Notes: generated from the sequence alone by a model not told the origin. 64,000 bases of DNA from Candidatus Fervidifonticultor quintus (GCA_031459535.1 JAVKIJ010000001.1:32001-96000), one strand, 5' to 3'. Numbered from the stretch's first letter, positions 42,102 to 52,493 are shown. Numbers and translations: made by a program.

Positions 42102-42112
42102 AGTGTTGTCAA

Positions 42113-42160
42113 GGCGATGGAGTCCGCCTGAACCGCCCTGACGGGCTGATGGCTCCTACC
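42113..42160 (+). ncRNA. Fluoride riboswitch (crcB motif) 1
   Basis: GGCGATGGAGTCCGCC-TGAACC-GCCCTGACGGGC-TGATGGCTCCTAC; P1, P2 and GGAG/CTCC pseudoknot present. Confidence 0.92.
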
Positions 42161-42189
42161 CAACTCAGCGGGTAGGAGCCCTCTCTGTT
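42151..42189 (+). terminator. Riboswitch 1 expression-platform terminator
   Basis: GGCTCCTACCC-AACTCAGC-GGGTAGGAGCC followed by CTCTCTGTT; the left arm is the aptamer 3' end. Confidence 0.75.
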
Positions 42190-42213
42190 CCCGCTGTCAA
42201 CAGAGGCGGATCC

Positions 42214-43410
42214 GTGGAGCAGGTCTGGTTCACCGCAGCCATCTGGCTTGGACTCGCCCTCATCGCCACCCTCCTGTCGATCTGGCTGCGGGTGTCCGTC
42301 GCCCTAACCGAGATCACCGTGGGCATGGTGGCCCAACTGGTCGTCGCGGGAATCGCCGGGCCGGGGGCGCTGGGTGCCCGGGAAGGATGGATCGCCTTCC
42401 TGGCCGGCCTTGGGGCGATGGTGCTCACGTTTCTGGCCGGCGCAGAACTCGACCCGGACTCCTTCCGAAGGAACTGGAAAGAGGCAACCGTCATCGGGCT
42501 CGTGGGATTCTTCGCGCCGTTTCTGGGAGCCACGTGGGCGGCGCGGGCCTTGCTGGGGTGGGGTGTCCAGGCCAGCCTGCTTGCCGGCGTCGCCCTCTCC
42601 ACCACATCGGTCGCCGTCGTCTACGCCGTACTCCTGGAGCTCGGCCTCAACCGGACTGCCTACGGCAAGATCATTCTCGCTGCCTGCTTCATCAACGATC
42701 TGGGCACGGTGGTCGCTCTGGGCCTGATCTTCGCACCGTTCACGCTGCGCAGCCTGGCGTTTGTCGTGGGCCTGGGGGCGGGCCTTGCGGTATTGGTCCG
42801 GGCCACCGGCGCGCTTTTTGGGCGGTACGGGGGGCGGACTTCAGAGCTCGAGGCCAAGCACCTGCTGTTCGGCCTCTTTGTGCTGGGCGGGCTCGCGGTA
42901 TGGTCGGGCTCCGAGGCGGTGCTCCCTGCCTACCTCATCGGCATGGTCCTGGCGGGCACCGTGGGCCGTGATCAGGCCCTGGTCAGGCGGCTCCGGACGC
43001 TGACCTTCGGGTTATTGACCCCCTTCTACTTCATCCGGGCCGGATCGTTCGTCGATGTGCCTGCGGTGGTGGCGGGTCTCGGCGTGTTCACCGTGCTCTT
43101 CCTGGCGAAAGCGGTCAGCAAGTTCGTCGGCATCTTTCCGCTGACGCGCCGGTACGGCTATCCCCACAATGAGGGCATGTACACCACGCTGTTGATGTCC
43201 ACCGGCCTGACGTTCGGCACCATCGCCGCGCTCTACGGCCTCTCTCACGACATCATCACCCAGAAGCAGTACTCGTTCCTCGTAGCCACGGTGATCGCGA
43301 GCGCTGTGGTACCCACCTGGGTGGCCAACAAGTTTTTCCTGCCGGTGCGCCATCTCCCGTCCGAGGAGGCACGCGACCCCCAAGATGCGCTGACGGCTGA
43401 GCCCGAGTAG
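42214..43410 (+). CDS. Cation:proton antiporter (CPA family)
   Basis: Multi-TM; LTFLAGAELD, ALSTTSVAVV, FINDLG, TPFYFIRAG. Confidence 0.88.
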   Translation: MEQVWFTAAIWLGLALIATLLSIWLRVSVALTEITVGMVAQLVVAGIAGPGALGAREGWIAFLAGLGAMVLTFLAGAELDPDSFRRNWKEATVIGLVGFFAPFLGATWAARALLGWGVQASLLAGVALSTTSVAVVYAVLLELGLNRTAYGKIILAACFINDLGTVVALGLIFAPFTLRSLAFVVGLGAGLAVLVRATGALFGRYGGRTSELEAKHLLFGLFVLGGLAVWSGSEAVLPAYLIGMVLAGTVGRDQALVRRLRTLTFGLLTPFYFIRAGSFVDVPAVVAGLGVFTVLFLAKAVSKFVGIFPLTRRYGYPHNEGMYTTLLMSTGLTFGTIAALYGLSHDIITQKQYSFLVATVIASAVVPTWVANKFFLPVRHLPSEEARDPQDALTAEPE

Positions 43411-43438
43411 AGATGCAGGAATGCGGAGGGAGCGGACA

Positions 43439-43858
43439 ATGATCACGCACATCCTCATTGCTCACGACGGTTCCGATGTGGGGCGGCGGGCGGTTGAAGT
43501 CGGCACCGACCTGGCCCTGCGCTATGGGGCGAAAGCGACTCTGCTGACGGCGATTCAATATCCCGCCTATGCGGCCACGGTGGACGAGGTCCAGGGCGCC
43601 GACGAGGAGCAGCGGGCCTTCGCCGAACGGGTCCAGCGTCAGGCGATCGAGTACGCTCGGATGCGCGGCCTCGACATGTCGGTCGCGATTGTGGCGGGCC
43701 ATCCGGCCGAGGTGATCGTGGACTATGCAGGGCAGCACGGGATTGACCTGATCGTGATGGGACATCGGGGGCTGTCCGGGTTGAGGCGGTTTCTGGTGGG
43801 CAGTGTTGCGGACCGAGTGGTGGATCACGCACCATGCATGGTGTTGGTGGTGAGGTAG
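43439..43858 (+). CDS. Universal stress protein
   Basis: ILIAHDGS..GHPAEVI..DLIVMGHRG..VGSVADRVVDHAPCMVLVV. Confidence 0.93.
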   Translation: MITHILIAHDGSDVGRRAVEVGTDLALRYGAKATLLTAIQYPAYAATVDEVQGADEEQRAFAERVQRQAIEYARMRGLDMSVAIVAGHPAEVIVDYAGQHGIDLIVMGHRGLSGLRRFLVGSVADRVVDHAPCMVLVVR

Positions 43859-43970
43859 GGGGCCGGGACGCGGCCCGGCGGCTGACGCCCACTGTGACCG
43901 GTGTGGGACTGACCAGCCTGTTCTTTTGACTGGAGTCATAAGCTGGTCCCGGCGCTCATCGACGCCGGGC

Positions 43971-45587
43971 CTACGGGCTCGCCGCAGACACGGGGCTTGG
44001 GGGCATGCCGAAGACGCGCCGATACACGTCCTCTCCATGGCTGGTGGCGAGCGGCTCGCCTTCCAGGATTCGGTAGGTCCGACGCCCGTCGGGGAGTCGT
44101 TCGGCGCGAAGGAAGAGAGCCTCATCCAGTTGCTGCCGGTGCAGTGAGCGTGCGAGATCGAACAGGTGGGTGACGAAGACGATTCGCACACCGAGGTCCG
44201 CGAGCGCTCGGAGCACCTGGCGCGCGATCTCTGATCCTTCGCGCTCGTTGGTGGCAGCAAAGGACTCGTTGAGAAGAATGACAGAGTCCGGGCGGACGTG
44301 ATCGATGATCTCACTCATACGCCGCAGTTCTTCGTCGAACTTGCCGCTTCTCATCTCGACGTCCTCTTCCCTCTTGAAGTGGGTGAAGAGACCGCGGCAG
44401 AGGCTGGCGTGGAACGAGCGGACCGGAACGATCATACCCGCCTGCATCATCAGTAGCGCCGTGCCGATCGTGCGCAGGAAGGTGGACTTGCCGCCGGAGT
44501 TGGGACCGGTGATGATCAGGAGATTCTTCCGGTTCGCGTAGAGGTCGTTGGGGACCACGGGGCTATCGAGAGTCAGGGCGAGAGTGACGTCGTGCAGGCC
44601 CTGAAACGACAGCCGCCGCTCGCTCGCGGGAGAGGGCAGGGGCAGGGACGTGGGGTACCCCTTGCGGGTCAAGGATTCGTGGAGATTCAGACAGCCGATG
44701 TAGAAGGCGAGTTCCGCTCGCAGCATGGTGAAGAAGTCGCGCACGTGGTTGGCGGCTTGGCCCAGGGCGTCGGCGGCCGAGGCAGTGGCCCGATTGCGGA
44801 GCTCGGCCAGGGCCTGGACGCCGGCTTCGTCGCGGGGGGAGAGCTCGAAGCGATAGGTGGCTGGGTGCTCTTCGAAGAGGTTCTTCCACCAGTCGATCCA
44901 GGCTCGCCTGCGGGCCGAGGTCCGGTGCAAGCGGTAGTGGGTGCCCTTGTTGGCGGGGCCGAGCTCGGCACTGAACAGCAGGCCGTGTGGGAATGTGAGG
45001 TCGTGCAGGTGGCGTTCGACCGCTGTGAGGTAGTCGCCGCCGAGGTTCTGTTGGACCATGGCGAAGAACGTGGTCCAGGCCTGGGCGCCGAAGTGCCGTG
45101 CGTGGAACTCGGCGAGGTCGCGGAGCTTCCGGAGCGGTCCGAGGAGCTTCGTCATCGTCTCGCGGGAGTCGCGGAGCACCCAATCCGGGTAGCGAGAGAG
45201 CACGCCGAGATAGTGCCCCCTCAACGGTTCTGTGGCTTCCACCGCGAGGGCGTAGAGATGGCGGACCACAGCCGGTTGGCGGAGGCAATCGGCCAGAACA
45301 CACTGACGATACAGAATCGTGTCGAGATCACCTTGCACGGCCTCCAGGAGGACTCTGCGGCTGACCTCAAAGACCCAGTCGTCGCCCCGTGCCATGGCGT
45401 CCAGGAGGGGAATCAGGGCCAGGTCCCGCTCGAGGTCCTCGGCGTTCCAGGGAAAGCCGGCATGGGGATTGAAGCCAGCGGGACGGGAGCGTCGTTGTCC
45501 AGTACGCGCGGCGGTGCGCTCCACTGCCGCCTGCTGTACGTGCTCCCAGTCCAGATCCAGCGTGGGATGCAGAAGGTGGGCCTTCAT
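43971..45587 (-). CDS. MutS-related ATPase (domain V; MutS4B-like)
   Basis: ITGPNSGGKST, FTHFKREED, SGKFDEE, ILLNESFAATNEREG, FVTH; no mismatch-binding or Smr domain. Confidence 0.88.
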   Translation of the reverse strand: MKAHLLHPTLDLDWEHVQQAAVERTAARTGQRRSRPAGFNPHAGFPWNAEDLERDLALIPLLDAMARGDDWVFEVSRRVLLEAVQGDLDTILYRQCVLADCLRQPAVVRHLYALAVEATEPLRGHYLGVLSRYPDWVLRDSRETMTKLLGPLRKLRDLAEFHARHFGAQAWTTFFAMVQQNLGGDYLTAVERHLHDLTFPHGLLFSAELGPANKGTHYRLHRTSARRRAWIDWWKNLFEEHPATYRFELSPRDEAGVQALAELRNRATASAADALGQAANHVRDFFTMLRAELAFYIGCLNLHESLTRKGYPTSLPLPSPASERRLSFQGLHDVTLALTLDSPVVPNDLYANRKNLLIITGPNSGGKSTFLRTIGTALLMMQAGMIVPVRSFHASLCRGLFTHFKREEDVEMRSGKFDEELRRMSEIIDHVRPDSVILLNESFAATNEREGSEIARQVLRALADLGVRIVFVTHLFDLARSLHRQQLDEALFLRAERLPDGRRTYRILEGEPLATSHGEDVYRRVFGMPPSPVSAASP

Positions 45588-47116
45588 GGACGAACGCGTT
45601 CTCGGATCGCGTCGTACGTCAGGCCGTGCTTCCGCGCCAGTGTCAGGGCGTAGGCAAGGCCGTCGGCGGGCCGCCGGACGATCTTGAAGGTGCGCACCTC
45701 GGGATTGTCGGGGGTGACCGTGGCGACCATGCTGACGGTCTTGGCGCTCCACGAGGCCAGCTCATCGAGGAATGTCACCCACACGCAGAAGGCGTCGAGC
45801 TCCGAGATGGCAGAAATGACTTGTCTGGCCAGAGAAAGAGCATCGCGCAAGGTGGTGGAGGAAAAAACCTCGTTGATGACGAGGACACTGCTGGCTGTGG
45901 CAGCTTGGAGGATCTGGTGGATCCTGAGCACGTCGTGCTCCAACTGGCCCTGGGGGCTCGCGACGGGCTCCCCTCGTTCGAAGTGGCTGAAGATCCGATC
46001 CGGCAGAGATAGCCGCGCTGAGGCGGCTGGGACGGGGCATCCCAGTGACGCTAGGTAGTGAAGCTGACCGAAGGTGCGGGCAAAGGTGGTCTTTCCACCC
46101 TGGTTTGGACCGGTGACGATGATGATGCGCTCCGGATCATTCAGGCAGAAGTCGTTGCACACCGGCAGGGAGCCCTCTCGGACGAGTCTGGCCGCCAGCG
46201 CCAGATCGAAGCACTGATGAGCGTACACCCGCTGGGACGAATCGCCGATCCGAGGATAGCAGAAGTTCAGACCCGCACGCTTCATTGGTGCGATGTACTC
46301 GAGATAAGCCATGTAGAATTGCACTTCTCGGTCAAAGGCCTCGATAGCGGGTTCGAGGAACGATCCATGGGCGCCGCGAAATGCGGCGAGGTCGGCGAAG
46401 AGTTCGGGGTACAGGGCTGCGACGCCGTCGAGGACTTGGGCCTCGACGTGGTTCATGTTGGAGGAATTTGGGAAGGTGAACTGGTAGCCAGAAGAGTGGG
46501 TCTGGCGGAAGCGTTGGAACGTGTGGGTGATTTCTGCGCTGTAGTCGGTCTCACCCTGGTGGTGGCGCACCTCGACGAGCAATCCGCGGATGAGGGTAGC
46601 GTAGCGGAGCGAGGAAAGCGCAGCCCGAAGACGGTCGGCTTCGTCTCTGAGTTGCCTGAAGGCCGGCCCAGATGCGTAGGCGAGGAGGAAGCGGCGAAAC
46701 TCCAGGAGCCCGGCGGACTGAAGTCGCGCGGCGGAGAGGTGCTCGGCTAGGCGGGAAACGGCGTGGCAGTAAAGCCCGACGGCATCCAGGAACCAGCGCT
46801 CCTGCTGCCGCTGCCAGTACGCTTCTCTGGAGAGAGCGAGATGCGATCGAACGGTGCGCATGGCCGATGCAAAGTCAGCCACCTGGGCGAACAGCATGGA
46901 ATCTTCCAGATCCTTCATGACCGCCTGGCGGAAGAGGACCCCGCGGACCGAGGGGAGAGGGGTGTAGAAGAACGGGTTGAGATGATACTCCTCGCGGCCG
47001 GCGGCGACGCCGTTGACGACTTGGTCGAGAAGCAAGTCGGTAAAGAACGGCGGAGGCTCTGGCTGGAGGACCAGGCGCGCCTGATCGGGCGGAAAGAGCA
47101 GGCTCAGCCTCGTCAT
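45584..47116 (-). CDS. MutS-related ATPase (domain V; MutS4A-like)
   Basis: VTGPNQGGKTT, FSHFERGE, GQLEHD, VINEVFSSTT, WVTF; stop overlaps the partner's ATG. Confidence 0.88.
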   Translation of the reverse strand: MTRLSLLFPPDQARLVLQPEPPPFFTDLLLDQVVNGVAAGREEYHLNPFFYTPLPSVRGVLFRQAVMKDLEDSMLFAQVADFASAMRTVRSHLALSREAYWQRQQERWFLDAVGLYCHAVSRLAEHLSAARLQSAGLLEFRRFLLAYASGPAFRQLRDEADRLRAALSSLRYATLIRGLLVEVRHHQGETDYSAEITHTFQRFRQTHSSGYQFTFPNSSNMNHVEAQVLDGVAALYPELFADLAAFRGAHGSFLEPAIEAFDREVQFYMAYLEYIAPMKRAGLNFCYPRIGDSSQRVYAHQCFDLALAARLVREGSLPVCNDFCLNDPERIIIVTGPNQGGKTTFARTFGQLHYLASLGCPVPAASARLSLPDRIFSHFERGEPVASPQGQLEHDVLRIHQILQAATASSVLVINEVFSSTTLRDALSLARQVISAISELDAFCVWVTFLDELASWSAKTVSMVATVTPDNPEVRTFKIVRRPADGLAYALTLARKHGLTYDAIRERVRP

Positions 47117-47454
47117 GGCTTCGGCATCTGACGCTCGCATCGTAAGAGCAGCCCGCGCGCGGGCTCGAATCCTGGTTGGTCGTCGAGGATCTCGCGCAGG
47201 ATCTTCGCCGCGTCGGCGAACTGGCGTTGCTCGACGAGACTGTGGGCGAGGTGTAAGCGAAAGTGTGGTTCATACGGGTTGAGCCAAACAGCCAGCCGGA
47301 AGAAGCGCTCGGCAGGTTGGTACGCTTCGCACTTCATGAGATGTGCGCCGATTCGATCCTCGGCGTATCCCAGATGGGGACTAGGGCGCAGCAGTTCGTT
47401 GCGTCGCTCGTGAGGCGTGCCCCGGGTTCGACGCGCCGCCGCTACCATCGCCAC
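47113..47454 (-). CDS. Small tetratricopeptide-repeat protein
   Basis: IGAHLMKCEAYQPAERFFRLAVWLNP / LAHSLVEQRQFADAAKILREILDDQP; overlaps both neighbours. Confidence 0.75.
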   Translation of the reverse strand: MAMVAAARRTRGTPHERRNELLRPSPHLGYAEDRIGAHLMKCEAYQPAERFFRLAVWLNPYEPHFRLHLAHSLVEQRQFADAAKILREILDDQPGFEPARGLLLRCERQMPKP

Positions 47455-48170
47455 ACCACGCCCGGCGCACCCACGTACTTGTGGAGCACACGCTGCCAGG
47501 AGGTGGCCTCCCCCTGGCTCATGGGCTCGTGCCTAAACCGATAGTCGTGCTTTCGCCAGAATTCCGACAGGTCGTTCAACAGACCCTCCAGGAGCGCTCG
47601 CTCCGCATTCGTTAGCCACTCGAGGTCCGAGGAGGACTCGGTCTGGGTCATCACGGTGGCGAGATGTCGGAGACACAACCCCAGGCTCGACGCGTAGCGG
47701 GCGCGGAAGTCCTCGTCCGGCAGCGCCTGGGCCGTGGCCCACGTGTACCGCTCCTCCGCCTGCCACTGGTCGGCGCAGGCGAGGCAGGGCCGCTGGGGAG
47801 TCAGCCATGCTGACAGGCTGCGGCCGAGCCCTCCGTTCGATCCACCGAACAACGCCAGGCGCAGCCCGACGGGCTGACTCACGCGTCCAGCGGCTTCCGT
47901 AATGAAGGTGTCATAGAACTCCTGCAGCAGATGGCGATAGACAATGGCGATGCCGGTCTGGCTGTCCAGGATGTGTGTCAACCGCCAAGCGTGCGCCGCG
48001 CAGAAACCGCGCGAGGCGAGCAGGTCCTCTCGGGTCCAGGGGTCATTGACCCGCTCGTACAGAAATCCGTCGATCAGCCGCTCGACCCCCTGCACGCTGA
48101 GATGACAGACCGCGCAGTGCTGCCAGTCGAGGGCATGATAGACCGCGAGGAACAACTGGTCGTGCTGCAT
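47442..48170 (-). CDS. DUF6062-like Cys/His Zn-binding protein
   Basis: CAVC..YERVND..GFCAAH..CLAC..GLCLRH..KHDYRF. Confidence 0.75.
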   Translation of the reverse strand: MQHDQLFLAVYHALDWQHCAVCHLSVQGVERLIDGFLYERVNDPWTREDLLASRGFCAAHAWRLTHILDSQTGIAIVYRHLLQEFYDTFITEAAGRVSQPVGLRLALFGGSNGGLGRSLSAWLTPQRPCLACADQWQAEERYTWATAQALPDEDFRARYASSLGLCLRHLATVMTQTESSSDLEWLTNAERALLEGLLNDLSEFWRKHDYRFRHEPMSQGEATSWQRVLHKYVGAPGVVWRW

Positions 48171-48173
48171 GGG

Positions 48174-48620
48174 CTATCGGCGCTCTCCAACGGGGCTGTC
48201 GCGCCCGGGCCGTGGTCCTGCACCATCGCCGGTGCTGATCAGACTGGCCTCGAGCTCGGCCACGGCCCGACGCAGCCGATCGTGCCGTGCCCGCTGGATG
48301 GCCAGCGATCGCTGATACTGGGCGTTGGACGCTTCCAGCCCCGTGATGTTGAGACGGAGAGTGCGGATGGCCTCATCGGCCAGGTAGGCCCGGTGCCGGA
48401 GGATAGCCATCTCGGCCCTGGCAGCCGACCACTCATTGTGGAGCTGTTCGGTGGGTCGCTCCGATGCCGTCAATGCGTCAGCGGCATATGCCAGGAGGAT
48501 CTTGACTCCCTCCTCAGGCGTCCAGCCCCTCTCGCGGATGAAGGCCTCGAACCGCGTACGGAGCCGGGCCGGGATCGGAACGGCGATCCGCTCCATCCGT
48601 GGAAAGACGAACTCACTCAC
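48174..48620 (-). CDS. Hypothetical coiled-coil protein
   Basis: Operon-coupled ORF; short beta-alpha-alpha-like N-terminus followed by a heptad-rich helix. Confidence 0.65.
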   Translation of the reverse strand: MSEFVFPRMERIAVPIPARLRTRFEAFIRERGWTPEEGVKILLAYAADALTASERPTEQLHNEWSAARAEMAILRHRAYLADEAIRTLRLNITGLEASNAQYQRSLAIQRARHDRLRRAVAELEASLISTGDGAGPRPGRDSPVGERR

Positions 48621-49116
48621 GCCTGAACCTGCCCACGCCAAGGAGCCTGGCCAACCGGTTTCCCAGCGCCTGTGGACGCCTAGGCGATGGCGTCGGTGCA
48701 GTCAGCGCCTCTCGAAGTGATCGAAGCTTCGCGTCCAGCGCGTCCGTCTCACGTCGCAGAGGCCACATCTGCCCCCGGTTGGTCCGTAGCTCAGCCCCCA
48801 GGGCGTGCACCCTCTCCGAGAGCTCATGCATGAGTTTCTCGCTGGCAATGGTGCGGGCACGCAGGGACACCAGGAGGGCCTCGGTCTCCCGTCGCTTGAG
48901 TTCCTCACGCCGCCTCTGGGCGTCGAGGCCCGATTCTCCCTCCAAGGCTCGCCAGGAGGCTTCGTCCTGGGCGAACAGATCGATCCCCTGCTCCAGGAGC
49001 CATGGCAGTCCCGCGTCGACTTCACGGCCGGCCATCTCAAGGGCTCGCCGGATCACAGCCCAGTCGTCGCTCAGCAACTCTACATCGATTGTCATTGCTT
49101 CAGCGAACTCCTGCAT
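48613..49116 (-). CDS. Hypothetical coiled-coil protein, first gene after riboswitch 2 (alternative start 49095)
   Basis: Heptad-rich ORF overlapping the next gene; lies just after the riboswitch terminator. Confidence 0.65.
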   Translation of the reverse strand: MQEFAEAMTIDVELLSDDWAVIRRALEMAGREVDAGLPWLLEQGIDLFAQDEASWRALEGESGLDAQRRREELKRRETEALLVSLRARTIASEKLMHELSERVHALGAELRTNRGQMWPLRRETDALDAKLRSLREALTAPTPSPRRPQALGNRLARLLGVGRFRRE

Positions 49117-49121
49117 CCCGT

Positions 49122-49161
49122 AAACAAGAAGCCCCTACCGATCCACAGATCAGTAGGAGCT
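49122..49161 (-). terminator. Riboswitch 2 expression-platform terminator
   Basis: AGCTCCTACTGATC-TGTG-GATCGGTAGGGGCT (14 bp, 2 G-U) followed by TCTTGTTT. Confidence 0.8.
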
Positions 49162-49201
49162 ATCAGCCTCGCGACATGAGGCGACGGCGAGCTCCATCGC
49201 C
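49153..49201 (-). ncRNA. Fluoride riboswitch (crcB motif) 2
   Basis: Minus strand GGCGATGGAGCTCGCC-GTC-GCCTCATGTCGCGAGGC-TGATAGCTCCTAC; P1 GGCGA/TCGCC, P2 GCCTC/GAGGC, pseudoknot GGAGC/GCTCC. Confidence 0.85.
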
Positions 49202-49229
49202 TATTCGATTTGAGCCTGCTTTGTAACAC

Positions 49230-49259
49230 AGTCTACCTTACCGGAAGTCACTGTGTCAA
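49230..49259 (-). promoter_or_regulatory. Putative promoter for the riboswitch 2 operon
   Basis: TTGACA(49259-49254)-18 bp-TAGACT(49235-49230). Confidence 0.6.
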
Positions 49260-50614
49260 CGCGCCGAATCGCGCCGCCTGAGATCTTACCCTGGGGCCTA
49301 TCGTCGCGTCATAGAAGATCTTACCGAGCCAAACCGGCATGCCAGGGTCCTGGGAGTAGAGATGAGCCCTACGTCGAGACGAGAATACATCCAGGCAATC
49401 CGCCAGCGCTATGTCCGCGCCCCGCGTGCTGTCAAGCAGCACCTGCGCGATGAGGTCTGTGCCGTGACTGGGTACCAACGCAAGTACGCTAGCCAGGTCC
49501 TCAACAGCGCGTCCCCGGCCAAGCACCCGTGTCCCCGGCGGCGCCGGGCTCCCACGTACGGCGCCAGGACCATCGCCCTCCTGGCCGCAATTTGGGAAGC
49601 CGCCGGGTACCCCTGGTCGGCGCGGCTCAAGGCCCTGCTGCCGCTCTGGTTGCCCTGGGCCACGCCGCGGTTTGCGATCACCCCCGAGCAGGAGCGCAGT
49701 TGCTGACGATCAGCCCCCGGACCATCGACCGTCGCCTCGAGGCCACGAAAACCCACCTGCGGTGCCGCCTCTATGGTCGCACCAAGCTTGGCACGCTACT
49801 CAAGCACCACATCCCCCTCAAGACCGATCGGTGGGACGTCACCACCCCCGGCTTCGCCGAGACGGACTTGGTCTCGCACTCCGGCAACGCCGCCGACGGC
49901 GAGTTTGTCCACTCCCTCAATCTGACCGACATCCAGTGCACCTGGGTCGAAACCCGCGCGGTGCTGGGCCGCGGGCAGACCGGCGTCCTCGCAGCCGTGG
50001 ACGAGATCGCGGAGGATCTCCCCTTTCTCCTGCGAGGACTAGACGCCGACAACGGCTCCGAGTTCATCAACCACCACCTCTTCCGGTACTGCCAGGACCA
50101 CGGGATCCAGCTCACCCGCGGCCGGCCCTACAAGAAAGACGACAACGCCCACGTTGAGCAGAAGAACTGGACGCACGTCCGCAAGCTTCTGGGCTGGGAT
50201 CGCTACGACTCCCACCAAGCCCTGGAGGCGATCAACGACCTCTACCGCCACGAGCTCCGGCTCATGATGAACCTGTTCCAGCCCTCGGTGAAGCTCGTCC
50301 GGAAAGTCCGCGTCGGCTCCCGGCTCAAGCGGGTCTATGACCGGCCCCAGACGCCCTTGGATCGTCTCCTGGCCACCGGCGCTGGCGACCCGGCGAAGGT
50401 CGCCGCCTTCCAGCAGCTGCGCACGCGCCTGGATCCCTTCGCGCTCACCCAGCCGATCGATCGGAAACTCGCCCGAATCTACCGCCTCGCGAACCACCGC
50501 CCCAGCCTCCCGTGCGTCGCCCCGCCACAAGGTCCGCCAGTGAAGTGCAAGGGGTGGGGTCCCGGCAGTGCCGCCGCGGAGGACTGGTTCGTCATCCGCG
50601 CGAAAGCAGACTGA
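49254..50614 (+). mobile_element. Decayed insertion sequence (rve/DDE, ISNCY- or IS481-like); left end present, right end not found
   Basis: TGTCAAC terminus, two subterminal repeats ending AGATCTTACC (49281, 49316), then the transposase. Confidence 0.7.
49362..50614 (+). pseudogene. Frameshifted DDE transposase/integrase
   Basis: N-part SRREYIQAIRQRY..WEAAGYP continues in another frame near 49697 as QLLTISPRTIDRRL; catalytic ETD..DADNGSEF..EQKN. Confidence 0.85.
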
Positions 50615-50651
50615 GAAAGCCCTGGGGCATCCTTCGGTGGAGGATTTTGCC

Positions 50652-52493
50652 ATGTTCGGATGGACCGGAAACATCCTCAGAGTCGATCTGACGCACAAGA
50701 CATTCCGAAGAGAGACGTTCGACGAGGCATTCGCCCACAAGTGGATCGGCGGCCGGGGATTCGCCGTGAAGACTCTCTGGGACGAGCTCGAACCGGGCAT
50801 TGATCCCTTGGGGCCCAAGAACAAGTTCGTCGTGGCCCTGGGCCCCATCGCCGGCATTGCCGCGCCCAATACGGGCAAGACCGTGGTCGCGGCCAAGTCG
50901 CCGCTGACCGGAGGGTACGGGGACGGCAACCTGGGCACCCGGGTCACGGAGCAACTCCGAAAGGCCGGCTACGACATGCTCATCGTCGAGGGGGCGGCGG
51001 AAGCACCCACGGTCCTCTTCATCGAGGATGATCGGGTGGAGTTCCACTCTGCCGCCGAGGTCTGGGGCCAGGGGACGTACGCAACTCACCACTGGATCTA
51101 CGAGCGCTACGGCAAGACGGTTGGGGTGCTGGTCATCGGGCCCGGAGGGGAAAACCTCAACCGCTATGCCGTGGTCCGGAGCATGGAGGGACGCTCGGGC
51201 GGCCGGCCCGGGATGGGCGCGGTGATGGGGTCGAAGAAACTGAAGGCCATCGTGGTGAGGGGGCGCGGGTCCGTTCCCCAGGCCGATCCCGCAGCCATGA
51301 AGAAGCTGGGCTCCGCCGACCTGCGCGCGGTGCACCAGATCGACAAGAAGACCGGTTGGTCCCTCCAGGGCACCACCGGCATTCTCGCGTGGTGCAATGA
51401 GGTGGCCGCGCTGCCGGTCCGCAACATGAGGAAGACCCATCACCCTGATGCCAGGTTCATCGACGGGGAGCGGCTGCACGAAGCGCGGGTGGCGACCTAC
51501 GGCTGTCCGATCTGCACCATGCCCTGCGGGATCGCCATCCACGACCGCGAAGGCCGGGAGTCCGAACTCGACTACGAGAACATCGGCATGCTAGGCAGTA
51601 ACCTGGAAATCTTCGAACTCGACCAGGTTGGCTCCCTCAACTTCCTGTGCGACGACTACGGCCTGGATACCATCTCTGCCGGCGGCGTCCTCGCCTTCTA
51701 CGCCGACGCCATCGACCGGGGAGCGGTCAGTGGCGATTTCCGGTTCGGCGATGGCGAGCGAGCCAAGGTGCTGCTCCGTCTGGCGGCCCTCAGGGAAGGG
51801 GAGGTGGGCAACCTGCTGGCCGAGGGCACCATGCGCATGGCGCAGAGATTCGGCCGGGGCTCAGACGCCTACGCCATGCACGTCAAGGGGATGGAGATCT
51901 CCGCGTACAACTGCAAGCTCTCGCCCGCCATGGCCCTGGCGTACGGGACGAGCCCGATCGGTGCGCATCACAAGGACGCCTGGGTGATTACCTTCGAACT
52001 CAACCAGACGGTTCGGGATTCCTACGGCCGGGAGAAAGCTCAAAAGGTCGTCGAGCTGCAGAGGATTCGGGGAGGCTTGTTTGAGTATCTGATTGCGTGC
52101 CGCTTTCCCTGGATCGAGGTCGGCTGGGAACTCGATCACTATCCGGTGTATTTCAACACCGTCACCGGGCTCCACTGGACGCTGGACGACTTCTGGAAGG
52201 TCAGCGACAGGATCTACGCACTCATGAAGTTCTTCTGGTTGCGGGAGTTTCCGGATTGGAACCGCAAGATGGACTACCCGCCTATGGTCTGGTTCGATCC
52301 CGCCAACGCCGATACCGACGGACCCATCGCGGGCAAGGTCCTCGATCTGGCACAGTACGACCGCCTCCTGAGCCACTACTATGATCTCCGCGGCTGGGAC
52401 GAGAGAGGCGTGCCAACCCGGAGGACGGCGGCAGCCCTCGGCCTCGAGGACGAAGCTCGGCGGGCGGAGACGTTCGGAAGGTTGGAAGACTGA
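50652..52493 (+). CDS. Tungsten aldehyde:ferredoxin oxidoreductase family, FOR-like
   Basis: IGGRG, KSPLTGGYGDGNLG, GRPGMGAVMGSKKLKA, CPICTMPC, ELDYEN, DDYGLDTIS, GAHHKDAW, YYDLRGWDERG. Confidence 0.93.
   Translation: MFGWTGNILRVDLTHKTFRRETFDEAFAHKWIGGRGFAVKTLWDELEPGIDPLGPKNKFVVALGPIAGIAAPNTGKTVVAAKSPLTGGYGDGNLGTRVTEQLRKAGYDMLIVEGAAEAPTVLFIEDDRVEFHSAAEVWGQGTYATHHWIYERYGKTVGVLVIGPGGENLNRYAVVRSMEGRSGGRPGMGAVMGSKKLKAIVVRGRGSVPQADPAAMKKLGSADLRAVHQIDKKTGWSLQGTTGILAWCNEVAALPVRNMRKTHHPDARFIDGERLHEARVATYGCPICTMPCGIAIHDREGRESELDYENIGMLGSNLEIFELDQVGSLNFLCDDYGLDTISAGGVLAFYADAIDRGAVSGDFRFGDGERAKVLLRLAALREGEVGNLLAEGTMRMAQRFGRGSDAYAMHVKGMEISAYNCKLSPAMALAYGTSPIGAHHKDAWVITFELNQTVRDSYGREKAQKVVELQRIRGGLFEYLIACRFPWIEVGWELDHYPVYFNTVTGLHWTLDDFWKVSDRIYALMKFFWLREFPDWNRKMDYPPMVWFDPANADTDGPIAGKVLDLAQYDRLLSHYYDLRGWDERGVPTRRTAAALGLEDEARRAETFGRLED

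Follow-up and report, generated by a model that had tools for sequence, protein, structure and literature searches.

The stretch analysed here, 64,000 nucleotides (nt) of Candidatus Fervidifonticultor quintus (GCA_031459535.1 JAVKIJ010000001.1:32001-96000, hereafter the window), carries on its minus strand a fluoride riboswitch followed by six tightly packed genes, the last two of which encode MutS-like ATPases. These two ATPases fit the MutS4A/MutS4B description given in the available text of PMC2190696, and the operon is a new arrangement of a known but unexplained MutS4 pair, not a new system. We lean, with somewhat better than even confidence, towards reading the operon as a fluoride-induced mosaic, specific to its lineage, of modules that are separately linked to fluoride and that do not include an exporter.

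A sequence-only reading of positions 43971-49201 had placed a crcB-type aptamer with an overlapping terminator directly upstream of the genes, and both elements held up. In a covariance-model search, the fluoride riboswitch aptamer (crcB motif, RF01734) was found at 49147-49210 on the minus strand, scoring 40.8 bits against the Rfam gathering threshold of 34 (E 7e-08) and covering the full model (1-64); aligned with 15 other riboswitches, it gave 24 invariant columns. All elements of the span named in that reading are present, except that its upper bound of 49201 trims the first 9 nt of the aptamer. A sigma-70-like promoter, TTGACA-18-TAGACT, lies at 49230-49259 on the minus strand with 10 of 12 hexamer matches and is the sole promoter-like site in 43700-49500, where the mean for shuffled sequence was 0.6. 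An intrinsic terminator occupies 49120-49161 on the same strand and forms the expression platform. The 5' arm of its 14-bp stem (49161-49130) sits on the 3' end of the aptamer, with which it has 15 nt in common, and the stem is followed by the tail TCTTGTTT, the T-rich tail of the whole feature reading TCTTGTTTAC. The minimum free energy of the leader was -48.9 kcal/mol (z -3.57), and none of 200 shuffles was equally stable. Judged by its sequence, the leader has the usual ON-switch layout. Fluoride binding would hold the 3' strand of the aptamer, block the terminator and allow the six genes to be read through.

All six genes lie on the minus strand 3' of the leader, overlapping or separated by tiny gaps, and they follow the order that had been claimed for them (two coiled-coil proteins, DUF6062, TPR and two MutS-V proteins). 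CC1 (48613-49116) is a 167-aa coiled-coil protein with no Pfam family and overlaps CC2 (48174-48641), its 155-aa coiled-coil paralog, for which a ribbon-helix-helix-like N-terminus is weakly indicated. A 3-nt gap separates CC2 from the gene for the 242-aa, all-helical DUF6062 protein (47442-48170; PF19538, 63 bits against a cutoff of 27), which in turn overlaps by 13 nt a gene for a small TPR protein of 113 aa (47113-47454) whose TPR_19 score is marginal (25.5 bits against 25). The MutS4A-type ATPase (MutS-V A, 45584-47140; MutS domain V, 74.3 bits) is 518 aa long and overlaps the TPR gene by 28 nt; with its start at the ninth codon (47116), as in the public gene call P0041, it is 510 aa long and the overlap shrinks to 4 nt. 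The stop of MutS4A and the start of the 538-aa MutS4B-type ATPase (MutS-V B, 43971-45587; MutS domain V, 80.7 bits; modelled as domains III-V) share a 4-nt ATGA overlap at 45584-45587. No transporter is encoded among the six genes, in agreement with the earlier claim that the operon does not encode an exporter.

In the available text of their 2007 study, Lin, Nei and Ma describe MutS4A and MutS4B as neighbouring genes, the start of the second overlapping the stop of the first, as recognisable by the ATPase domain alone and as of unknown function (PMC2190696). The pair in the window resembles the subfamily, as far as it is described there and in the accessible part of PMC5742357, in the gene overlap, in having an ATPase domain as the only part recognisable by sequence and in a patchy distribution suggesting horizontal transfer. 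It differs in being joined to a DUF6062 operon, and it is assigned to MutS4 by its match to the published description, not by placement in a tree of MutS4A and MutS4B clades. Pfam recognised PF00488 and a weak AAA_22 alone in the pair, with no MutS-I, MutS-II or Smr match, and profile matches to the PDB were confined to positions 282-506. Three other identities were rejected on NCBIfam scores: MutS1 (81.6 and 80.2 bits against a cutoff of 480; domains I and II not found), the MutS2 endonuclease (55 and 88.7 bits against 400; Smr not found) and the KamC reactivase (NF052383; 44.3 and 76.6 bits against 300). Relatives are publicly annotated as 'DNA mismatch repair protein MutS', a routine label for the pair that is wrong by these scores. 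The pair is also very common, with at least 558 relatives in metagenomes and 7999 of 8000 scored protein-collection candidates at E <= 1e-20. A MutS-related class is reportedly listed for the fluoride riboswitch in Baker's work of 2012. According to the available text of Weinberg 2010, mutS is among the genes found 3' of the crcB motif (PMC2864571). This bears out the earlier statement that MutS-annotated genes occur among fluoride riboswitch targets; at the same time it removes, together with the fit to MutS4A/MutS4B, the claim that the system is undescribed. The operon shares with the regulon as presented in that source an aptamer above gathering, a terminator on the aptamer's 3' end and a downstream mutS, and differs from it in lacking an exporter. 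Literature searches found no functional study tying MutS4 to fluoride, no paper on DUF6062 and none on a fluoride riboswitch with dynamin, the supplements of the riboswitch papers, which lay outside these searches, being a place where more families may be listed; MutS occurs 0 times in a 2024 fluoride-resistance review.

The MutS4 pair is linked to fluoride riboswitches well beyond the window. From a metagenome scan with a MutS4A alignment, 80 loci were kept, and removal of five near-identical ones left 75 distinct loci. Our own covariance model (R1), built from 16 riboswitches, gave 123 matches in the 80 loci; in 13 re-checked loci Rfam confirmed 13 of 16 R1 matches, down to 23 bits. A riboswitch lies within 600 nt upstream of MutS4A in 34 of the 75 distinct loci, farther upstream (600-5000 nt) on its strand in 13 and elsewhere in the locus in seven, and 54 loci carry at least one. 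Eight further loci show no riboswitch and have less than 400 nt of upstream sequence. Of the 66 loci whose sequence extends far enough, 65 have MutS4B after MutS4A, and a 4-nt overlap joins 42 of 50 pairs. Other families in the related loci are the Na+/H+ exchanger, Usp, enolase (a cluster present in 15/75 MutS4 loci), pyrophosphatases, CrcB, DUF190 and MFS.

Closer relatives of the species show how the operon came together. Twelve of their loci bear DUF6062: ten have CC1, CC2 and DUF6062, one has CC2 and DUF6062, and one has a DUF6062 fragment. A riboswitch lies upstream in all 11 loci with CC2 and DUF6062 (eight by Rfam, the other three by R1). The MutS4 pair occurs in one of the 12, there within the order riboswitch-exchanger-Usp-MutS4A-MutS4B, which is also found in L034, L035, L039 and L108-L110. 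Among five same-genus genomes, the riboswitch-CC1-CC2-DUF6062 core is present in four, and the fifth (G003; L027 9084-9260) retains the first 58 DUF6062 residues only, with no CC1 or CC2 match. None of the five has a MutS4A match, the MutS4 pair is absent from all of them, and each has two MutS_V genes against four in this genome. The riboswitch-CC1-CC2-DUF6062 core is ancestral in the genus, and because the same-genus genomes lack a MutS4A match and have two rather than four MutS_V genes, it is in this species that the TPR gene and the MutS4 pair joined it. Through such rearrangements the pair stays behind one or other fluoride riboswitch, and this is a good reason to think that control by fluoride is important to it.

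DUF6062 has a wide distribution of its own. A scan of species genomes yielded 184 relatives, of which 80 loci were kept, in Candidatus Fervidifonticultor and its relatives, Chloroflexota, Thermodesulfobacteriota, Omnitrophota, Aerophobetes, Pseudomonadota, Bacillota and others. A riboswitch was found upstream in 34 of the 80 (within 400 nt on the same strand in 23 and at 400-1800 nt in 11) and only elsewhere in the locus in three. In a quick tree of DUF6062 the riboswitch-linked members are spread over many clades, the starred branches forcing at least eight changes. Often found downstream of DUF6062 are a further DUF6062, a HEAT protein (in some cases bearing a zinc ribbon), MFS, pyrophosphatases, DUF190, the Na+/H+ exchanger and Usp. 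Enolase directly precedes DUF6062 in eight Anaerolineae-type loci (L056, L062, L065, L069, L070, L075, L085 and L091), whose DUF6062 sequences group in a single ten-member clade of the quick tree; riboswitches hidden from R1 were considered for these loci and rejected, Rfam finding none in the eight. A further Anaerolineae locus, L037 (5900-8700), has the order riboswitch, DUF6062, HEAT/zinc-ribbon protein, MutS4A, MutS4B, with both MutS genes broken by frame changes (decay or assembly errors).

Across 14 sequences the invariant residues of DUF6062 are C19, C22, C57 and H60, then C129, C132, C166 and H169, and an RKHDYRF motif at 206-212. The predicted structure is all-helical (predicted local distance difference test, pLDDT, 85.7; predicted template-modelling score, pTM, 0.80). 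No match to this fold was found in the PDB by Foldseek (best E 0.68) or by VIA-align over 48,161 chains (best Z 5.0), a profile search of PDB sequences assigned no fold (best E 0.014), and hhalign detected no similarity between DUF6062 and a 499-aa GTPase of the fluoride islands. Five of six tested open reading frames from MutS4 loci encode a dynamin-family GTPase with a C-terminal DUF6062 (L115 246-2069, L178 1674-3695, L160 5654-7405, L120 6230-8119 and L152 4902-6836); the DUF6062 of L115, at 26.1 bits, is just under the cutoff of 27. The end of the fusion lies 18 nt from the MutS4A start in L115 and 2 nt from it in L178. P0040 is another dynamin-DUF6062 fusion, and the structural neighbours of DUF6062 in the ESM Atlas are dynamin fusions. 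DUF6062 probably serves nucleoside triphosphatases (NTPases) as a helical, metal-binding partner domain, and its co-worker may be the TPR protein in this operon and HEAT proteins elsewhere. Compared with the DUF6062/dynamin-like GTPase loci, the operon likewise has a DUF6062 with two Cys-Cys-Cys-His sites behind a fluoride riboswitch; it differs in having no GTPase and in coupling DUF6062 to CC1/CC2, the TPR protein and the MutS4 pair.

Structure prediction of the complex, proposed in the sequence-only reading as a check, gave DUF6062 with MutS4A a median score of 0.47 (0.00 for the best control), with a partner pLDDT of at least 80 and runs sharing at least 6% of contacts. Support for a contact is thus weak, and one of the three runs scored 0.00. 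In the calibration, scores of 0.60 or below were obtained for seven of 80 solved complexes and for both of the two mismatched pairs, among 110, that passed. We conclude that the DUF6062-MutS4A link is recurrent and possibly a physical contact.

These distributions bear on the proposal that the six products make up one obligate, fluoride-induced ATPase machine that strips enzymes or nucleoprotein complexes trapped by metal-fluoride, close to the multi-subunit machine of the sequence-only reading. Six genes that overlap or nearly abut behind one riboswitch would suit such a machine, as would the presence of DUF6062 in 18 of the 75 MutS4 loci (directly upstream of MutS4A in five), the gene order of L037, which mirrors the operon, and the weakly predicted contact. 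The modules are, however, found apart far oftener than together: the MutS pair stands directly behind a riboswitch, within 600 nt, in the 34 loci given above and DUF6062 within 400 nt of one in 23 of its 80, CC1 occurs in none and CC2 in one of the 75 MutS4 loci, and the same-genus cores lack the pair. Nor does anything tie the proteins to metal-fluoride complexes. We therefore regard an obligate machine as very improbable. The sequence-only reading would have been refuted by the lack of a covariance-model match or by four small genes that never accompany the MutS pair elsewhere. Neither came about: the match exists, and DUF6062 and, in 4/75 loci, relatives of the TPR protein do recur with the pair.

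By hhalign, CC1 and CC2 are paralogs (probability 97.4%, E 1.4e-11, 147 columns). PDB searches with CC1 returned coiled-coil matches only, and a search of 1.84 billion proteins gave the CC2 family 99 representatives at E <= 0.001, 16 of them at E <= 1e-30; together the two are probably a heterodimer specific to the phylum. Profile positions 9-51 of CC2 weakly matched the N-terminus of the RelB antitoxin (E 0.0037 and 0.016), and CC2 and DUF6062 stand together behind a riboswitch in 11 of the 12 relatives' loci, ten of which have CC1. This combination would be consistent with CC1, CC2 and DUF6062 forming a second-tier regulatory module, made of ribbon-helix-helix binders and a zinc modulator, that is functionally unrelated to the MutS4 pair. 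Pfam, however, found no ribbon-helix-helix family in either CC1 or CC2, and DUF6062, which occurs in other phyla without CC partners and fused to a GTPase, does not look like a transcription factor; we consider such a module unlikely. Relatives of the TPR protein, at 37-52% identity, occur in MutS4 loci L121, L122, L125 and L160, and those at L121 5210-5527 and L125 3646-3948 lie just 3' of their own fluoride riboswitches. The small TPR family looks like a further riboswitch-linked gene.

To provide further insight into the ATPase pair, MutS4B was modelled from 52 sequences (pLDDT 83.5, pTM 0.83). Foldseek matched the model to MSH2, MSH3, bacterial MutS and MutS2 at E ~1e-16 over ~460-630 columns, and because of these matches MutS4B is predicted to consist of the core/lever, clamp and ATPase domains (MutS domains III-V) without the mismatch-binding, connector, KOW and Smr domains. 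The Walker A motifs read GPNQGGKTT in MutS4A and GPNSGGKST in MutS4B. In 76 MutS4A sequences N423 and E424, the Asn-Glu of Walker B, and F457, a Phe in place of the conserved His, are invariant; in 52 MutS4B sequences N440 is present in at least 90% and E441 and H474 are invariant, so that the conserved His is kept. MutS, MutS2 and MSH2, when aligned, have Asp and His at the positions of the MutS4 Asn and the MutS4A Phe. Since Asn replaces the magnesium-coordinating Walker B Asp in both subunits, a weakened magnesium site is predicted in both. The accessible part of a study of E. coli MutS D693N reports that the metal pocket was empty and high-affinity ATP binding lost while ATP hydrolysis was retained (PMC2857095). 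The ATP site built on the MutS4A Walker motifs, without the conserved His, is probably degenerate judging from its residues, and the one built on the MutS4B Walker motifs appears complete. We infer that the two subunits pair as an asymmetric heterodimer and work as a clamp ATPase that has no mismatch-binding, connector or nuclease domain. In the available text of the two MutS4 papers (PMC2190696, PMC5742357), neither fluoride nor the Walker B Asn nor the MutS4A His-to-Phe change is mentioned.

Such a pair resembles two known kinds of MutS clamp. Like MutS2, it has core/levers, a clamp and an ATPase domain, and neither has a mismatch-binding or connector domain; MutS2, however, is a homodimer with KOW, an Smr nuclease and Asp/His motifs, whereas MutS4 is a two-gene pair without KOW or Smr and with Asn and Phe. 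MSH2-MSH6 and MSH2-MSH3 are MutS clamps built as heterodimers whose two ATP sites are unequal, as is predicted for MutS4, and they gave the best Foldseek matches, but they have mismatch-binding domains and the canonical Walker B Asp in both subunits.

A DNA clamp is the likeliest role for the MutS4 pair. In M. smegmatis carrying the MutS4 operon of Mycobacterium yongonense, according to the available text, recombination of a diverged rpoB fragment was raised, being found in 27 of 36 sequenced colonies against five of 16 (PMC5742357). The M. yongonense MutS4A/B island, as described there, also contains enolase and NADH-dehydrogenase-like genes, fluoride going unmentioned in the accessible text, and it resembles the fluoride islands seen here. 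We propose that under fluoride stress the MutS4A/B clamp would act on DNA, at recombination or stalled-replication intermediates, and that its altered magnesium site would keep it working when magnesium-fluoride poisons ordinary NTPases. Taken as a whole, this proposal is tentative, its chances falling just short of even.

Several observations weigh against this proposal and against fluoride control as its setting. A riboswitch was not found by R1 in 13 of the 75 MutS4 loci and in 43 of the 80 DUF6062 loci, making fluoride control frequent, not universal. Among the ten cluster representatives annotated, no nuclease, helicase or recombinase family was recurrent in MutS4 loci. The M. yongonense effect is modest and comes from one heterologous assay in the text available (PMC5742357), and protection of the ATPase from magnesium-fluoride by the Asn can only be inferred, the D693N study, in its accessible part, having used no fluoride compounds (PMC2857095). 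The run of the complex prediction that scored 0.00 and the weak RelB match of CC2 belong here as well. Finally, the predicted clamp fold is also used by MutS2 on ribosomes, so that the fold alone cannot single out DNA.

This last point opens the possibility that the MutS4 pair, like MutS2, clamps and splits ribosomes, here ones stalled by fluoride-trapped translational GTPases. The N-terminal part of MutS2 has the same domain set, III-V, the model matched MutS2 on the B. subtilis collided disome (7qv3) at E 2.0e-15, and GTPases recur in the same fluoride islands. Smr and KOW are absent, however, the NCBIfam mutS2 scores are those of non-members, and the genome retains its own MutS2-sized MutS_V gene (842-aa frame); the sole published experiment found also points, in its available text, to DNA recombination (PMC5742357). 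A ribosomal role is therefore quite unlikely. We give similarly little credence to a variant in which DUF6062 and a TPR/HEAT adaptor would recruit the MutS4 clamp and, its carboxylate-free magnesium site being immune to magnesium-fluoride trapping, the clamp would remove fluoride-frozen NTPases from DNA or ribosomes. If it were true, a fluoride-immune remodelling clamp would constitute an export-free repair branch of the fluoride response, in a genome in which neither CrcB nor CLC was found.

The MutS-V fold is not restricted to nucleic acids. NCBIfam includes as a MutS-V family KamC, the reactivase ATPase of lysine 5,6-aminomutase, against which MutS4B scored 76.6 bits, and this, with the enolase cluster in 15 of 75 MutS4 loci and enolase directly before DUF6062 in the eight Anaerolineae loci, could be taken to suggest that the pair uses ATP to reactivate or chaperone magnesium enzymes, enolase for example, that fluoride has poisoned, DUF6062 and TPR serving as adaptors. 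The KamC score is nevertheless far under the cutoff of 300 and reflects the ATPase core only, MutS4 retains the lever and clamp domains typical of nucleic-acid clamps, and the enolase link is one of synteny only, enolase itself being a known riboswitch target. A reactivase is accordingly very unlikely, and the DNA clamp remains our preferred role for the pair. Sequestration of fluoride through ADP-MgFx trapping was rejected on stoichiometric grounds, by reasoning only.

The window holds a second fluoride operon, which the sequence-only reading had not mentioned. It runs from 42104 to 43858 on the plus strand and comprises a riboswitch (42104-42165), which at 59 bits scores higher than the aptamer of the six-gene operon, a Na+/H+ exchanger (42214-43410; Na_H_Exchanger, 134.2 bits) and Usp (43421-43858; 122.1 bits). 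This operon converges on MutS4B, 112 nt away, and in sister lineages it carries the MutS4 pair at its end. A third fluoride riboswitch, on another contig (L003 513-577), precedes Usp and MFS genes. No CrcB (PF02537) or CLC (PF00654) gene was found in the assembly, which is 88.85% complete, and it may be that the Na+/H+ exchanger and MFS genes under riboswitch control take the place of the customary exporters. With three fluoride riboswitches and no detectable known exporter, the genome is a useful case for fluoride tolerance by means other than export. The operon physically ties the MutS4 pair to DUF6062 and a TPR protein, each riboswitch-linked alone, and the conserved Asn and Phe substitutions make the fluoride sensitivity of the ATPase directly testable.

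In a metatranscriptomic run of the same study, a fraction of 0.59 of the sampled words was present, a figure that resolves neither part nor strand. Directly upstream of the riboswitch promoter lies an insertion-sequence (IS)-like gene at 49362-50614 on the plus strand, whose match to the integrase core domain rve, at 23.6 bits, is below the Pfam cutoff of 32.6 and which may be tied to local rearrangement. A defence or mobile-element reading, which this gene might suggest, was rejected, yet not for want of such a neighbour: the riboswitch association holds across phyla. The next gene, at 50568-52493 on the plus strand, encodes an aldehyde:ferredoxin oxidoreductase (AFOR_N, 246.9 bits; AFOR_C, 337 bits) and is an ordinary neighbour.

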